A stretch of DNA of 64,000 nucleotides from NCBI RefSeq assembly GCF_054482595.1, contig NZ_CM137008.1; one strand, 5' to 3'. A model generated the notes under the pieces. It made no database searches. It was not told the origin of the DNA and saw only the letters and a program-made list of their open reading frames with translations. Made by a program: the position numbers and the translations under genes. The stretch's first letter is position 1; every line of letters starts with the position of its first letter. Shown one piece after another: positions 10,725-23,056 of this stretch.

Positions 10725-12206
10725 CTACGCTAATCCCAGGCGCTGAAACTGCTCTGGCGGCGCATCATTATCTTTCATCAACTGAATCAGCAACGCGATC
10801 ATCCGGGACTCGATCACATCATCATGAATCGGATGTAGCTGCTGCGGATCGTTTTGCAGATCAAACAGCAAATGACCAAACTGATTCAACCCCTTATATT
10901 TTTCCTGTGCCGGGATGCGTAATACCTGTAACCCTTTGGTAAAACGAAACGGTGGGGCCAGCGATAAAGCCCGCATCTCATCCACCGGATAGCGGCTGTT
11001 CATTTTGCAGGACATCAACGTGTAGTTGGCAATATCATCCTCACGCCCCGGCAGCGCTGCACGCATATAGACAAAACGCCCATCGGTTACGTTAACATGA
11101 CCACTGAAGACACCAAACATCGCCGAGCTGCGTACTGGTTCATCGTGACTGACCGTTTTCGCCAGCGGTTGCCCCTGCACATCGGGCGGCACTGGCTGTT
11201 GAAAAAAGTCATACAACGTTGGCGCCCAGTCGATCATTTGTACCAGTGCCTGTCGCCGCTCTCCTTTTACACCACTGCGCGGGTCCCAGATAAACAACGG
11301 ATTATTGGCAACTTCGTTGTAATAAGGCATCTGGTTTTTCGCCCACCAGCCATGCTCACCGAGTAAAAAGCCGTGGTCAGTGCCGACAATCAGCATGGTA
11401 TCTCGCCACAGATCGTGCTCATCCATCAGGTCGAGAATGCGCCCCAGGTTGCGATCGCACATCGACACCAACGAACGATACCGGCAACGGATGTGCTCCA
11501 CGGCCTCGTCGCTTTCCTGCACCCGGCCACGCGGCCAGTCATAATGCGGTCCATCCCAGTTATCTTCATACAAGGAAAGATACTCTTCCGTTGTGTGAAA
11601 CGGCTCGTGCGGATCAAACGTTTCGACCTGCAATAACCAGTTATCTTCCGCGTGATTTTTGTGGATAAAGGCACAGCCTGCATCAAACACTTTAGTTTGT
11701 GGAAAATCCGCTTCCTGCTGAATATATTCCCGGTTTGCCCAGTCATGGCGCCACAGACCAGAAACACCGCCACCGGTCTGCTTTTGCGGCACCCGTAGCA
11801 CCTCGGGAATAGGCGGTTGCGCAACGCTTGCATGCCAGTGATCGCCTTCCTGTCCGCGCACAATCTCCCACGAACTGTAGCGATTATGATAATTCCCGCC
11901 GCCATCTTCCCAGTAATGCAAATGATCGCTTATCAGGTGGGTATAGATCCCCGCCTTTTTAAGCAGCTCCGGCATGGAATCGTCAAACGGTTCTAACGGC
12001 CCCCACTCCCGATGCAGGAAGTTACATCGCCCGGTATGCAACTCCCGCCGGGCAGGCATACACGGCATACTGCCGACGTAACTGTTTTCAAAGGTGGCGG
12101 CATGAGCCGCCAGACGTTGGAAATTAGGCGCTTTGGTTAACGCATCGCCATAAGGTGGCAGATAACGTTTATTCAGACTATCGAACAGCAGAATAATCGC
12201 TCTCAT
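10725..12206 (-). CDS. Cys-type sulfatase (arylsulfatase family), predicted cytoplasmic
   Basis: 493-aa ORF; signature C-M-P-A-R-R-E-L-H-T-G-R near N-terminus; no signal peptide (starts MRAIILLFDSLNKRY); not present between artJ and rlmC in K-12. Confidence 0.85.
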   Translation of the reverse strand: MRAIILLFDSLNKRYLPPYGDALTKAPNFQRLAAHAATFENSYVGSMPCMPARRELHTGRCNFLHREWGPLEPFDDSMPELLKKAGIYTHLISDHLHYWEDGGGNYHNRYSSWEIVRGQEGDHWHASVAQPPIPEVLRVPQKQTGGGVSGLWRHDWANREYIQQEADFPQTKVFDAGCAFIHKNHAEDNWLLQVETFDPHEPFHTTEEYLSLYEDNWDGPHYDWPRGRVQESDEAVEHIRCRYRSLVSMCDRNLGRILDLMDEHDLWRDTMLIVGTDHGFLLGEHGWWAKNQMPYYNEVANNPLFIWDPRSGVKGERRQALVQMIDWAPTLYDFFQQPVPPDVQGQPLAKTVSHDEPVRSSAMFGVFSGHVNVTDGRFVYMRAALPGREDDIANYTLMSCKMNSRYPVDEMRALSLAPPFRFTKGLQVLRIPAQEKYKGLNQFGHLLFDLQNDPQQLHPIHDDVIESRMIALLIQLMKDNDAPPEQFQRLGLA

Positions 12207-12217
12207 TACGCCCTACC

Positions 12218-12538
12218 TTATTGATTAATTAAATGCGGATAATGTTGCTGAACCACTTCATAAATTTGCTGACCAATAGTTTCACCGTCCATAATATTCT
12301 CTATCGGGATCAGATATTGCCCTTGTTTCGGGTCAAGACTAACCACATCGAGTAATTTTTTGGAAATTGCAAAAATATCCGCCCAGTCGGTAAATCCTCC
12401 TACTTCACCTGCGGCGGTATGTTCCATTTCAACTTTGAAATCATATTTGGTCAGCGCTTTTTTAACGACCGTTTGTAACATAACGCTACTGCCTACACCG
12501 TAACCACAGACAAACAGAATATTAATTGTATCTTTCAT
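12218..12538 (-). CDS. PTS EIIB component, ascorbate-family (UlaB-like)
   Basis: 106 aa, N-terminal ILFVCGYGVGSS phospho-cysteine loop like UlaB/SgaB; sits between EIIC and sulfatase. Confidence 0.75.
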   Translation of the reverse strand: MKDTINILFVCGYGVGSSVMLQTVVKKALTKYDFKVEMEHTAAGEVGGFTDWADIFAISKKLLDVVSLDPKQGQYLIPIENIMDGETIGQQIYEVVQQHYPHLINQ

Positions 12539-12559: not shown

Positions 12560-13903
12560 TTAACCCGCGTAAGGACCAAGATGGAATGTTGCAGCGATAA
12601 ATTTCAGAACTTCACAAATAGCAGGCCATACGGTTGCCCAGTCAAATATTCCTGTCCAGCCGACGCCATTTTCAGCAAGCCCGGTTAACGGAATAGCCCA
12701 CACCGTACCGAAGGTCTGAATAATACCCAGCAAGAACGTACAGATAATTACGGAACGGTATCCGCCCATGCGGTTTGCTAATACGCCAATTGGACCGCCA
12801 GAGAAAAACAGAGGTACAAAGCCAGGCAATACCATAATTGGGCTGTGAACCAGTAATAAGATCCCCATCGAAAAAATGGTGCCAAAAGTACAGAAGACGA
12901 AGCCTAACGTTGCGGCATTGGGTGAAAAAGGCAACAGCGCGGCGACATCGACGGCGGGAATGGCATTAGGAATAAAGCGATCCTGCCAGCCTTTAAACGA
13001 ACCGTTAATTTCGCCCACCATCATGCGCACACCCTGCAGCAGAATGACCATATACATGGAGAACTGTAAGCCAAGGTTGATGATATAGATGTACCAGGGC
13101 TTGCCTTTCGCCATTAACTGGACATTATCGATACCCGTTGATAGCAAGAAACCACCGACAAACAGCGTCATCACAATGGCGATAGCCGTTACGTTATGGT
13201 TAAAAATCGCCAGCCACCCGGGGAGTTTCAGGTTTTCAGCATCGTGCTTTTCGGGGTCACCAAATTTATGGGCGAATTTGGAGAAAAACCACAATCCCAA
13301 CATCTGGTTATGAGCAATGGTAAAACCAGCATCTTTGGTAACTTTGGCAATGGGCTTAACAATGAGCGTGGTGGAGAACGCCCAGAATACACCCGTTAAT
13401 ATTCCGGCAATAATAATGGATGTAGTCCAGCTAAAACCCAGCCAAAAGACAATCAACCATAATACCGCCTGAGAATGTGAAACACCGGTATTCCCTGTCA
13501 AAAATATCCCTTTGGCACCAGTATACCGACCAAATAATACCAGCAGCAGGTTGGTAAAAAACGCCAGTACAAATACATACCCGACATAACCAAAATTATC
13601 CCCCAATGCAATTTGCGTTGCCGCTTTCATTGCGTAGGAATCCATTAAATATCCGTGAACACCATAGGCTTTACTTACGGCTTCTGCTACCGGTTTAAAT
13701 GTTGCGGAAAACTGGAAACCACCAAATAACACCATCATTAATCCCACCATGGCGCTGACCATGCCGGTAATAATTTTTATTGGCGATTTCTTATCAAGGG
13801 CATAACCAATACCCACCAGCAAACCAATTAAAATTGCCGGTTCAGTTAAAAACGTTTGAATAACATCTATGAATTTGGCAAACATCGTCGGAACGCCCTC
13901 CAT
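12560..13903 (-). CDS. PTS EIIC component, ascorbate-family (UlaA/SgaT-like)
   Basis: 447-aa polytopic ORF; shared UlaA blocks KLPGW, GVRM, PGF.P.FFS; alternative start at 13885 (MFAKF). Confidence 0.8.
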   Translation of the reverse strand: MEGVPTMFAKFIDVIQTFLTEPAILIGLLVGIGYALDKKSPIKIITGMVSAMVGLMMVLFGGFQFSATFKPVAEAVSKAYGVHGYLMDSYAMKAATQIALGDNFGYVGYVFVLAFFTNLLLVLFGRYTGAKGIFLTGNTGVSHSQAVLWLIVFWLGFSWTTSIIIAGILTGVFWAFSTTLIVKPIAKVTKDAGFTIAHNQMLGLWFFSKFAHKFGDPEKHDAENLKLPGWLAIFNHNVTAIAIVMTLFVGGFLLSTGIDNVQLMAKGKPWYIYIINLGLQFSMYMVILLQGVRMMVGEINGSFKGWQDRFIPNAIPAVDVAALLPFSPNAATLGFVFCTFGTIFSMGILLLVHSPIMVLPGFVPLFFSGGPIGVLANRMGGYRSVIICTFLLGIIQTFGTVWAIPLTGLAENGVGWTGIFDWATVWPAICEVLKFIAATFHLGPYAG

Positions 13904-14090
13904 AAGCGTACATTTCCGTTGTCAATGCATGAACCTTCTGCTGACGTTAATAATGTCTCAGGAAATTTTGTGTTTCGCTAAGCAATGCCTCTGTATGTAT
14001 TCGGTAAGTGCACTGTAGTAATCAAAACAGTTCAATTAAAGATCTTATTTGATTATTTGTGATTTGATTTGCAAAAATAGAGCAATATAT

Positions 14091-14132
14091 AACCGTGATC
14101 GATCGGTTATTATTAATCGATCGATCACGATT
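14091..14132. promoter_or_regulatory. GATC-dense inverted repeat upstream of PTS-sulfatase operon
   Basis: cgtgatcgatcg (14094..14105) and its reverse complement cgatcgatcacg (14118..14129) separated by 12 bp; four GATC sites. Confidence 0.5.
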
Positions 14133-14182
14133 ATTATTTTGAGTGAATAGTTGTTGCCGAAAAATTTACTGCCGTGATGTAT

Positions 14183-15310
14183 TTAAATTTTTACCAGCAG
14201 CGTCAACACTTCATAATGCGCGGTGTGAGGGAACATATCGAAAAGCTGCACCCGTTCAATGCGATAACCAGGCAGTTCTCGGATATCTTTCGCCATAGTT
14301 TGGGCGTTACAGCTGGAGTAGATAATAAAACGCGGTGCCATCGTTGAGAGATAATCACACAGCGGTTTACCAATGCCGCGGCGCGGCGGGTTAACCAGCA
14401 CCAGCTCCGGCACCTCCCCCTGAGCGGTGGCAAACTGAGTGGAGTCCAGCGCCTGAAATTGCAAACGCGTTAAGCCCAGTTCAGCGGCTGACTGCTTTGC
14501 ACAGGCAATGGCCTCTGGCGCAATTTCGATCCCGGTTAACTGCATGTCAGGCGTCGCGCAGTGTAAACCAAAGCCACCCACACCGCAGAACAGATCCCAC
14601 ATATGTGTAACCGGCAGTTGTCGTACCCAGTCGCGCGCGGTAGCGTACAGCTGGCTGGCGACCGCCGGATTAGTCTGGAAGAAACTTTGCGGACGGATCC
14701 ACAGCGGTACGTCATTAAAACGCTCTACCAGTGCCTGTTGTTCGGTCAGGTAGATCTCCGTCTCCCCTTCCATAATCGCCATATGTACCGGCTGAATATT
14801 GACGGTAATAACTTTCAGCTGCGGTAGTTGTTCGTGTAACCACGGCAACGCCTTACGCAGTTGCGCCAGCTTGGTATCAGAACGCAGTACAAAGCGCAGC
14901 ATCATGCCGCCATCACTCTGGCTTTCAGTCAGCAGAATGTATTTCAGTTCGCCACGCTTACGCGCCACGTTGTAGGGCGTTAACCCCGCTCGGGCGATAA
15001 ACGGTTTTAGCGCCGCAAAAACGGGCGCAAATGAGGCAGGATAAAGCGGGCAGTCACAAAGGTCTTCTGGTGTGCCGTCGCGATGCAGCATACCGAGCAG
15101 TGGTTTTTCAACGCTACCACTCACCACCATTTTGGCTTTATTACGAAACCCTTGTTCCGGGCCTGACACTGGCGCGCACCATTCCTCAACCGGAAAGTCG
15201 GCGAGCAGATTTTTAAGATCGGCGGTTTTAGCGGAGAGTTGCTCTGGAATCGGCTGCGTTATCCACTGACAGGAACGACAGCGACCCGCGTCGTAAAGTG
15301 CGCACTGCAT
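14183..15310 (-). CDS. rlmC: 23S rRNA (uracil747-C5)-methyltransferase
   Basis: 375-aa ORF starting [16 protein letters not shown] (Fe-S cysteines); synteny with ybjO/potI. Confidence 0.9.
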
Positions 15311-15898: not shown

Positions 15899-16744
15899 TC
15901 AGCCACGTCTTGCACGCTGGATGTCGCGTATCCGCTGTTTTTCTGCGCGAGCCATCAGATACCAGGCGATAAATCCGACAATTCCGACCGCACCAAGGAT
16001 CAATGTTGCCAGGGCGTTGATTTCCGGATTCACCCCCATCCGCACGCTGGAAAAGACCAGCATCGGTAACGTGGTGGCTCCCGGCCCGGATACAAAGCTG
16101 GCGATCACCAGATCATCAAGCGACAAAGTAAAAGCCAGTAACCAGCCAGAAATGATCGCGGGCATGATCATCGGTAGCGTAATGACGAAAAACACTTTCA
16201 GCGGCGTCGCACCGAGATCCATCGCTGCTTCTTCTATCGAGCGATCCAGTTCCCGCAATCTTGAAGAAATAACGACCGCCACATAAGCCGTACAAAAAGT
16301 GACATGCGCCAGCCAGATGGTGAGCATACCGCGGTCCGCAGGCCAGCCAATGGCATGAGCAAGCGCGACGAATAATAACAACAGCGACAAGCCCGTGATG
16401 ACATCTGGCATTACCAGCGGCGCGGTGATCATAAAGGCAAAGCCATTTGATCCGCGAAACCTGCCAAAGCGCACCAGCACCACCGCCGCAATAGTCCCGA
16501 GGATCGCCGCCGCCGTTGCCGCACAGGCAGCAATTGTCAGGCTTAAACCAACCGCACTCATCATCGCGTCATCGCGCAATAACTCACCATACCAGCGCGT
16601 TGACCAGCCGGCCCACACCGTCACCAGCTTCGAGCTGTTAAACGAATAGATAACCAGCATCAGCATTGGCGCGTAGAGAAAGGTAAAGCCCAGCAGCAAA
16701 ATCACAATCCGCCAGGGCGAACGAACTACCGGTAAATTATTCAT
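15899..16744 (-). CDS. potI: Putrescine ABC transporter permease
   Basis: ORF 15899..16786; start at MNNLPVV gives 281 aa and 4-nt overlap with potH stop. Confidence 0.9.
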   Translation of the reverse strand: MNNLPVVRSPWRIVILLLGFTFLYAPMLMLVIYSFNSSKLVTVWAGWSTRWYGELLRDDAMMSAVGLSLTIAACAATAAAILGTIAAVVLVRFGRFRGSNGFAFMITAPLVMPDVITGLSLLLLFVALAHAIGWPADRGMLTIWLAHVTFCTAYVAVVISSRLRELDRSIEEAAMDLGATPLKVFFVITLPMIMPAIISGWLLAFTLSLDDLVIASFVSGPGATTLPMLVFSSVRMGVNPEINALATLILGAVGIVGFIAWYLMARAEKQRIRDIQRARRG

Positions 16745-17694
16745 CCGTGTTCTCCCACGCTTTTTTGCTGGTGTTTGTGGAACCACATTATCGGCACAAT
16801 TAGCAGCAGCAACATGATGATCGCTACCGCCGAGGCCACCGGCCAGTCGCGGTTGTTAAAGAACTCCTGCCACAGCACGCGCCCGATCATGATGCTGTCC
16901 GGGCCACCGAGCAGTTCCGGGATCACAAACTCGCCCACAGCCGGGATAAACACCAGCATCGATCCGGCAATAATCCCACCTTTAGTCAGCGGCACGATCA
17001 CAGTAAAGAACGTTTTCAGCGGTCGTGCACCGAGATCCAGCGCTGCTTCCACCAGCGAATAATCAATACGAATCAACGCAGTATAAATCGGCAGTACCAT
17101 AAACGGCACGTAAGCGTAAACAATGCCAATATAAACTGCCAGATTGGTATGAAGAATGGTCAGCGGTTGATCGATAACCCCCAGCCACAGCAGAAAATTA
17201 TTCAGCACACCGTTGTTTTTTAATATTCCCATCCAGGCGTAGACACGAATCAGAAACGAGGTCCACGACGGCAGGATCACCAGTAGTAATAAGATATTAC
17301 GGGTCGAAGGCTTACTGTGCGCCACCGCCCACGCCAGCGGATAGCCGATCAGTAAACAGCAAATAGTCGAAATCGCCGCCACCTGTAACGACTGGAGATA
17401 AGCATCAAAATAGAGCGGATCGTCGGTCAGTTGCAGAAAATTACCGAGATTAAGAGTGATGGAAAGTTGCCCCTCAGCCCACTCCATCAGTTCGGTATAA
17501 GGTGGAATAGCGCGCGCCATCTCTGCCAGGCTTATTTTAAAGACAATCAGAAATGGCAGCAGAAACAGCAAGATCAACCAGATATACGGCAACGCAATGA
17601 CCAGTTTGCGCCCATGCTTCATTTGCAACTGCGACAACCACAGCTTAAATCCGCCCGGCGGTTTCGACTGGGCAGCAGGTTCAAGTGTACTCAT
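16741..17694 (-). CDS. potH: Putrescine ABC transporter permease
   Basis: 317-aa ORF; synteny. Confidence 0.9.
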   Translation of the reverse strand: MSTLEPAAQSKPPGGFKLWLSQLQMKHGRKLVIALPYIWLILLFLLPFLIVFKISLAEMARAIPPYTELMEWAEGQLSITLNLGNFLQLTDDPLYFDAYLQSLQVAAISTICCLLIGYPLAWAVAHSKPSTRNILLLLVILPSWTSFLIRVYAWMGILKNNGVLNNFLLWLGVIDQPLTILHTNLAVYIGIVYAYVPFMVLPIYTALIRIDYSLVEAALDLGARPLKTFFTVIVPLTKGGIIAGSMLVFIPAVGEFVIPELLGGPDSIMIGRVLWQEFFNNRDWPVASAVAIIMLLLLIVPIMWFHKHQQKSVGEHG

Positions 17695-22897: not shown

Positions 22898-23056
22898 ACG
22901 CTTCCCTCTGCAAAGTGAGCCTTCAGTCTAAAACTTTTCACTGTATTGTGTTTAACAGTTATAGCTTTTAGCAATTAATGCAACAGGTTAAACCTACTTT
23001 CAGCGAATACATTTTAGCGTGATCATTACAGGCATAAATCTATGAGGAGAGAAATA

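Follow-up and report, generated by a model that had tools for sequence, protein, structure and literature searches.

A GATC-rich inverted repeat downstream of rlmC in Escherichia coli is probably a conserved transcript-end hairpin rather than a methylation switch

The inverted repeat between rlmC and a PTS-sulfatase operon of Escherichia coli is best explained as an RNA hairpin serving to terminate, protect or insulate the transcript of rlmC, its GATC sites being incidental; we give this reading a probability of about 0.6. The pairing has been kept while GATC has been lost in Salmonella enterica subsp. enterica, and the element is therefore most likely an ordinary hairpin and not a methylation switch. 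We infer that it acts at the level of RNA, through termination or 3'-end protection.

The window (the whole stretch of 64,000 nt that was analyzed, from contig NZ_CM137008.1) is E. coli DNA, and the 401 bp around the repeat are 100% identical to O145:H28 and other strains. Its features are listed in Table 1. An earlier note on this DNA had described a near-perfect inverted repeat with 12-bp arms, and these core arms (cgtgatcgatcg and cgatcgatcacg) are indeed perfectly complementary, but the element is larger than claimed: the full repeat spans 46 bp, with 21-nt arms (14089-14109 and 14114-14134) that are 90% complementary and enclose a loop of 4 nt. The 12-bp spacer between the core arms, said to be AT-only, contains one G (gttattattaat). 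Read as sense RNA, the repeat is AUAAUCGUGAUCGAUCG-A-UUA-AUAA-UAA-C-CGAUCGAUCACGGUUAU, with an outer helix of 17 bp and an inner helix of 3 bp. The position given before, about 190 bp upstream of the EIIC start, agrees with the 191 bp that separate the repeat from the annotated start at 13903.

Table 1. Coordinates of the repeat and of neighboring features in the window. Sequences are given in the sense of rlmC transcription.
Feature	Position	Strand	Remarks
rlmC, 23S rRNA m5U747 methyltransferase	14183..15310	-	co-directional upstream gene
rlmC 3' untranslated stretch, stop codon to hairpin	14135..14182	-	hypervariable among alleles
Full hairpin-forming inverted repeat	14089..14134	-	folding and repeat search; 17-bp helix conserved with covariation
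5' core arm, CGTGATCGATCG	14118..14129	-	two GATC, at 14119 and 14123
Spacer/loop, ATTAATAATAAC	14106..14117	-	sequence and length vary among lineages (12, 11, 9 nt)
3' core arm, CGATCGATCACG	14094..14105	-	two GATC, at 14097 and 14101
A/U-rich tail 3' of hairpin, AUAUUGCUCUAUUUUUGCA	14070..14088	-	weak U-tract
ulaA-like promoter/operator block of the PTS-sulfatase operon	14009..14078	-	gapless alignment to K-12 ulaA promoter
PTS EIIC, UlaA/SgaT family (PF03611)	12560..13903	-	
PTS EIIB (PF02302)	12218..12538	-	
Cys-type sulfatase, CMPAR motif, without signal peptide	10725..12206	-	

Four GATC sites within about 40 bp had been reported for the repeat, and they in fact fit into 30 bp, with a fifth starting nearby at 14041. 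Comparison of this density with expectation bore out that it is unusual. The window holds 297 GATC (about one per 215 bp), its maximum of four per 40 bp is at the repeat, and this value was attained in only 3 of 100 first-order Markov simulations. The four sites are not independent events, however, because the palindrome mirrors a single 8-mer, GATCGATC. Five sites in the window hold perfect 12-bp inverted repeats whose arms are no more than 20 bp apart, versus ~0.1 per simulated window, and the four besides this one are GC-rich and terminator-like. The sense-strand RNA of the repeat has a predicted folding energy of -28.1 kcal/mol (z = -7.9; none of 200 shuffles folded as well), and it is the sole strong structure of the 279-bp rlmC-EIIC intergenic region.

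The genes rlmC, EIIC, EIIB and sulfatase all lie on the minus strand, and the next gene, artJ, is convergent. Of 5426 complete E. coli genomes, 566 carry the three-gene island (UlaA-type PTS EIIC, EIIB and cytoplasmic sulfatase); it is found in O157:H7 Sakai (ECs_0940 to ECs_0942), O145:H28, many B2 strains and Salmonella, and is lacking in K-12. Its junction falls within the last codons of rlmC, which encode LLVKI* here versus LLVKQ* in K-12, and the repeat is placed at the island edge, 48 nt past the rlmC stop codon in the direction of transcription. The annotated, longest-ORF start of EIIC is probably wrong, and the true start would be the ATG at 13885, which has GGAGG 9 nt upstream and agrees with the start in other genera and in the Sakai annotation (441 aa). 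Orthologous cassettes occur in other Escherichia species, Salmonella, Silvania, Leclercia and Yokenella, and in none of the genera examined do they include a regulator gene. A literature search found nothing on the regulation of Z1087-1089, ECs0940-0942 or STM0884-0886 and nothing on the function of the island, and the locus goes unmentioned in the ST131 methylome paper; STM0884 of S. enterica LT2 is annotated as 'ulaA' (PMC3844500).

Several other features of the neighborhood were recorded. The sulfatase and artJ genes are convergent, and the gap between them (10676-10724) holds a perfect, GC-rich hairpin (TTTGCCGGAGTGGG...CCCACTCCGGCAAA, 10682-10715) that looks like a shared bidirectional terminator at the opposite edge of the island. 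Upstream of rlmC, potH is annotated as a frameshifted pseudogene in O145 strain RM9872 (8892-9865 of locus L001), and its counterpart in the window is an intact ORF of 317 aa (16741-17694).

The repeat is single-copy, with one locus per genome across the 566 genomes; the two places counted per record represent the palindrome matching both strands. A blastn search with the 71-bp element gave no match in E. coli genomes beyond the rlmC-island locus, no copies were found in phages, and plasmids yielded no true match. A REP/BIME element, a dispersed repeat or the end of a mobile element were rejected on these grounds. The best Rfam match, STnc550, scored 19.6 bits against a gathering score of 48 and was judged spurious, so that with no match near the gathering score a known RNA family was also rejected. 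Searches for a small ORF or leader peptide at the repeat region returned just short, unconvincing ORFs.

The strongest evidence for a functional structure comes from the comparison of alleles. Among 16 alleles from Escherichia, S. arizonae and S. diarizonae, the arms are conserved and the loop is 12 or 11 nt long, while the 35 to 50 bp that separate the repeat from the rlmC stop codon have diverged beyond alignment. The few changes seen in the arms preserve pairing (U.G / C-G / U-A at one pair; G-C to G.U to A-U at another), and the (GATC)2 / CGATCGATCG stem sequence occurs in Escherichia and in S. enterica subsp. arizonae and diarizonae, the repeat of S. diarizonae having three GATC. A count restricted to alleles of E. 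coli and S. arizonae/diarizonae gave no significant covariation (43 of 500 shuffles), and significance was reached only once alleles of S. enterica subsp. enterica were added. The latter have the same rlmC-to-cassette gene order and carry a hairpin (AAATACAATCAATTGA-TTATTTAAT-TCAATTGGTTGTATTT) at the identical position and register, with no GATC at all and with 7 of the 17 stem pairs altered on both sides compared to E. coli; these alleles (L050, L054, L047) fold equally well (z = -5.6, -5.1). In a gapless alignment of nine alleles, 99.3% of the cells of the 17-bp helix are paired and seven pairs differ on both sides. Covariation scored 0.382 versus 0.193 +/- 0.027 in shuffles, of which 0 of 500 reached the observed score, and sliding the 3' partner by one to three columns reduced it to 0.114 or less. 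The helix is thus conserved by way of compensatory changes, most of which come from a single lineage split, and in principle such a pattern could also originate free of selection, by template-switch correction of a quasi-palindrome.

Wobble pairs on the sense strand include passage through G.U at three stem positions and A.C at one, and this gives a weak lean toward sense-strand RNA. The loop varies freely in sequence and, among lineages, in length (12, 11 or 9 nt). The A-rich 5' flank, AAATAATAA, shows no variation. The orthologous cassettes of Silvania, Leclercia and Yokenella do not have the repeat. Two local 20-bp palindromes (TAAYC-N10-GRTTA) were considered as separate protein sites and discarded, since Salmonella does not preserve their inner halves and conservation is thus limited to the long-range pairing. 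A distal UlaR operator in the 5' flank was likewise discarded: its AATC varies to AACC and covaries with the pairing partner, and it thus behaves like a stem base rather than a half-site.

Two kinds of variation were noted within E. coli. A 4-bp deletion that removes one GATC unit of the 5' arm (alleles L006, L042 and L043; approximately window positions 14119-14126) is present in 6 of 566 genomes, and this change from (GATC)2 to (GATC)1 arose independently on O145-type and B2-type alleles and leaves the stem asymmetric. The stretch between the rlmC stop codon and the hairpin exists as two haplotypes, the O145/E. whittamii type and the O157/B2 type, whose mutual similarity is only ~50%, with nearly identical flanks on both sides; the split may mark a boundary of recombination, or else a spacer that is relaxed, rich in C and poor in G.

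The orientation of the gene upstream of the cassette also varies. The hairpin is present downstream of the co-directional rlmC in Escherichia and Salmonella. In Yokenella the cassette follows a co-directional histidine kinase gene, the stop codon of which is overlapped by an unrelated, GC-rich hairpin. Beside the divergent arylsulfotransferase gene found in Silvania, Leclercia and one metagenome-assembled genome, no significant structure was detected (z ~0). Judged from these sequences, this is the pattern that an insulating terminator would show, with few independent cases. In the island-free K-12, a separate hairpin and REP-like palindromes come after rlmC.

The suggestion that the repeat could double as the rlmC terminator is favored by its position, covariation and orientation, and is weakened by the sense U-tract. 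At 48 nt, the stem-loop is well within ~100 nt of a co-directional stop codon, as applied to intrinsic terminators. The sense tail, UUAUAUAUUGCUCUAUUUUU, consists entirely of A/U over its first 9 nt, with no U-run. Tail scores are modest, at -2.5 to -3.7 over both directions and -2.6 to -3.7 for the sense tail, compared to -3.1 for the rlmC hairpin of K-12 and -7.15 for a perfect T15, and a terminator scan calls the repeat on the plus strand only. The length of the stem, and its AU-rich composition in S. enterica, are atypical for an intrinsic terminator.

The repeat shares with the intrinsic and bidirectional terminators of E. coli, and with 3'-protecting hairpins downstream of Rho-dependent sites, a stem-loop soon after a co-directional stop codon. 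An A-rich 5' side, an A/U-rich 3' side, conservation of structure over sequence and a position between two independently regulated transcription units add to the likeness to terminators. It differs from E. coli intrinsic terminators in its stem of 17 to 21 bp, which is moderately GC-rich (AU-rich in S. enterica), and in its interrupted sense U-tract. The REP/BIME sequences after K-12 rlmC resemble it in being palindromes in the same intergenic position that could stabilize the upstream mRNA, and the repeat takes the place of the K-12 hairpin and REP stretch in island-carrying strains; unlike them, it is single-copy in each genome and is without the REP consensus.

Under the preferred reading, transcripts leaving rlmC would form a stem of 17 to 21 bp, and this hairpin would either end them or mark and protect their 3' end. 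Read-through would be kept off the CRP-dependent, ulaA-like promoter ~20 bp further on, and antisense transcription arriving from the opposite direction may be blocked as well. The element would then be a hairpin selected for its structure, at the left edge of a three-gene cassette acquired horizontally, and its GATC sites a by-product of the self-complementary stem and not a functional determinant. Three variants can be pictured: a bidirectional intrinsic terminator of modest strength; a hairpin that protects the 3' end behind a Rho-dependent site, for which the excess of C over G in the preceding stretch (C/G ratio of 2.2 to 7.5 in every allele type) would be suitable; or a duplex of a length suited to RNase III.

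It is unlikely, though worth serious consideration, that the palindrome is neutral or acts at the DNA level, as a leftover of the island junction that is maintained by template switching and possibly forms a cruciform, with no role at transcript 3' ends. The edge of the Escherichia-Salmonella conserved block falls exactly at the repeat, the flanks of the repeat are AT-rich, the U-tract in the sense direction is weak, and a 4-bp unit has been lost at least twice independently. Template switching can transfer changes between the arms and thereby mimic compensatory evolution. Against this, the pairing has outlasted the split between Escherichia and Salmonella while the loop and the adjacent 35 to 50 bp diverged beyond alignment, G.U intermediates occur at three sense-strand positions, and Yokenella has an independent, unrelated hairpin in the equivalent functional position. 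Being single-copy and absent from phages and plasmids, the repeat is also not the end of a mobile element.

We consider it improbable that the hairpin is mainly a plus-strand terminator, stopping antisense transcription that runs from the AT-rich regulatory region of the cassette towards rlmC. The corresponding region drives the divergent ulaG in ula, and faces the divergent arylsulfotransferase gene in other genera. The plus-strand call of the terminator scan comprises 16 pairs, a loop of 4 and the tail ATTATTATTT, the plus-strand tail is U-rich in every lineage (AUUAUUAUUUUGAG in E. coli, AUUAUUUUUAUG in S. enterica), and the invariant 5' flank is A-rich. However, no convincing plus-strand promoter was found from the CRP-like site to the hairpin, the best candidate starting inside the stem; there is no plus-strand gene or noteworthy small ORF, and the wobble pairs favor the sense strand by 3 to 1.

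The earlier note had placed the repeat in the promoter region of the PTS-sulfatase operon, but the promoter block lies further downstream and can be recognized by its similarity to the ulaA promoter of K-12. The two are identical at 42 of 70 positions without gaps, whereas shuffled versions of the block gave best values of 30 +/- 1.6, with a maximum of 37 in 2000. Within the block are a CRP-like site, TGCAAATCAAATCACA (14058-14073), repeats of AATCA/AATCTT/TGATT, and a putative -10 element, TACAGT (14012-14017). The gatt/attt direct repeats described before at 14041-14075 are present, but belong to this conserved promoter/operator block. It is conserved in six genera, including the Silvania, Leclercia and Yokenella cassettes that have no repeat, and the columns invariant in all seven block sequences are TTTGC-N6-TCACA (a CRP-type site centered at 14065.5), AATCA, AATCTT, TGA, TTTGA and TA-AGTG. 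A scan for sigma-70 promoters was uninformative, giving 2 sites versus 2.0 expected. If the operon starts near 14005, as the alignment would predict, the center of the repeat is at about -106 and its span about -129 to -84, and hence it lies upstream of the promoter and the CRP-like site, outside the operon's own transcript. The likeness to the K-12 ulaA promoter concerns this neighboring block and not the repeat, and the ula intergenic region of K-12 has no comparable GATC palindrome.

These relationships bear directly on the role originally proposed for the repeat, that of an operator for a dimeric regulator, or of a Dam-sensitive or phase-variable switch. Such an operator, or such a switch of the agn43, gtr, opvAB or pap type, would control the PTS-sulfatase operon. 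We regard either as highly improbable. The repeat is the densest GATC cluster of the window, its GATC pairs are spaced by 22 bp, or roughly two turns of the helix, and neither Escherichia nor S. enterica subsp. arizonae shows any variation in the GATC core; as in the Dam/OxyR switches of agn43/flu and of Salmonella gtr and opvAB, the GATC sites are clustered in AT-rich DNA and precede an operon acquired horizontally (opvAB architecture from PMC4856963). Unlike in those switches, the GATC sites are not retained in orthologous loci (none in subsp. enterica, three in S. diarizonae), and the repeat is a long-range palindrome, not tandem half-sites, that lies off the promoter. Since the hairpin of S. 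enterica subsp. enterica is without GATC, Dam sites cannot be the conserved determinant, and with 7 of 17 positions changed on both arms no one sequence-specific protein could recognize both of the divergent stem versions. The spacer length of 12, 11 or 9 nt, the 4-bp deletion alleles, the location of the repeat beyond the CRP-like site and its absence from three other genera in which the promoter is kept all speak against an operator, for which half-site and spacing should be preserved wherever the promoter is. Phase variation by slippage of (GATC)2 is unlikely because two repeat units are too few.

Matches to particular regulators were no better. The OxyR consensus is matched at 12 of 20 positions, which is background (130 window positions score at least 12), compared to 17 of 20 for the grxA promoter control and 14 of 20 for agn43, and the GATC sites of the repeat are not inside half-sites matching ATAGnTnnnAnCTAT-N7-ATAGnTnnnAnCTAT; an OxyR site was accordingly rejected. 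The agn43 regulatory region has two short strings, ATCGATCGAT and TAATAATAACC, in common with the repeat, but these are 4 bp out of register and homology to that switch was dismissed. The pap architecture has two GATC ~102 bp apart in sets of Lrp sites, together with PapI/PapB-like local regulators. The spacings here are 4 and 22 bp, and the island consists only of EIIC, EIIB and sulfatase, with no regulator, papI-like or papB-like gene, and a pap-type Lrp/Dam switch was rejected as well. The positive control is the 17/20 match in the ybjC-grxA intergenic region (window 22961-22997), which is presumably the known OxyR site of grxA. A second GATCGATC was seen in the window at 3418-3449, with a third GATC 24 bp on, directly upstream of the start of ORF 3094-3417 (ybjQ by synteny); only four places in the window, this one included, have three GATC in 40 bp.

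We give very little credence to a lineage-specific second role for the GATC DNA in Escherichia and S. enterica subsp. arizonae/diarizonae, such as SeqA binding when hemimethylated or shielding from Dam, which if true would make expression of the PTS-sulfatase operon replication-coupled or heterogeneous from cell to cell.

As a transcript-end hairpin, the repeat is an unannotated but ordinary inter-operon element, and the finding itself changes little. It does carry a lesson, in that a striking cluster of GATC sites within a palindrome can be the side effect of a self-complementary stem, and that one orthologue in which the pairing is kept and the motif lost settles the question of motif versus structure. 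The more interesting lead is the ula-like promoter on a PTS-sulfatase island that has no regulator of its own. The ulaA promoter is reportedly activated by CRP and repressed by UlaR (Campos et al. 2004), and the conserved block suggests that the operon may be controlled by CRP together with the core-genome repressor UlaR or a similar DeoR-family protein. The PTS of the island belongs to the ascorbate family and has EIIC and EIIB without EIIA, paired with a cytoplasmic Cys-type sulfatase, and in other genera an arylsulfate sulfotransferase gene adjoins the cassette. A sulfated, ascorbate-like substrate, for example L-ascorbate-2-sulfate, is a testable guess for what the island handles, and its ulaA-type promoter architecture makes both this and control by CRP and UlaR directly testable.
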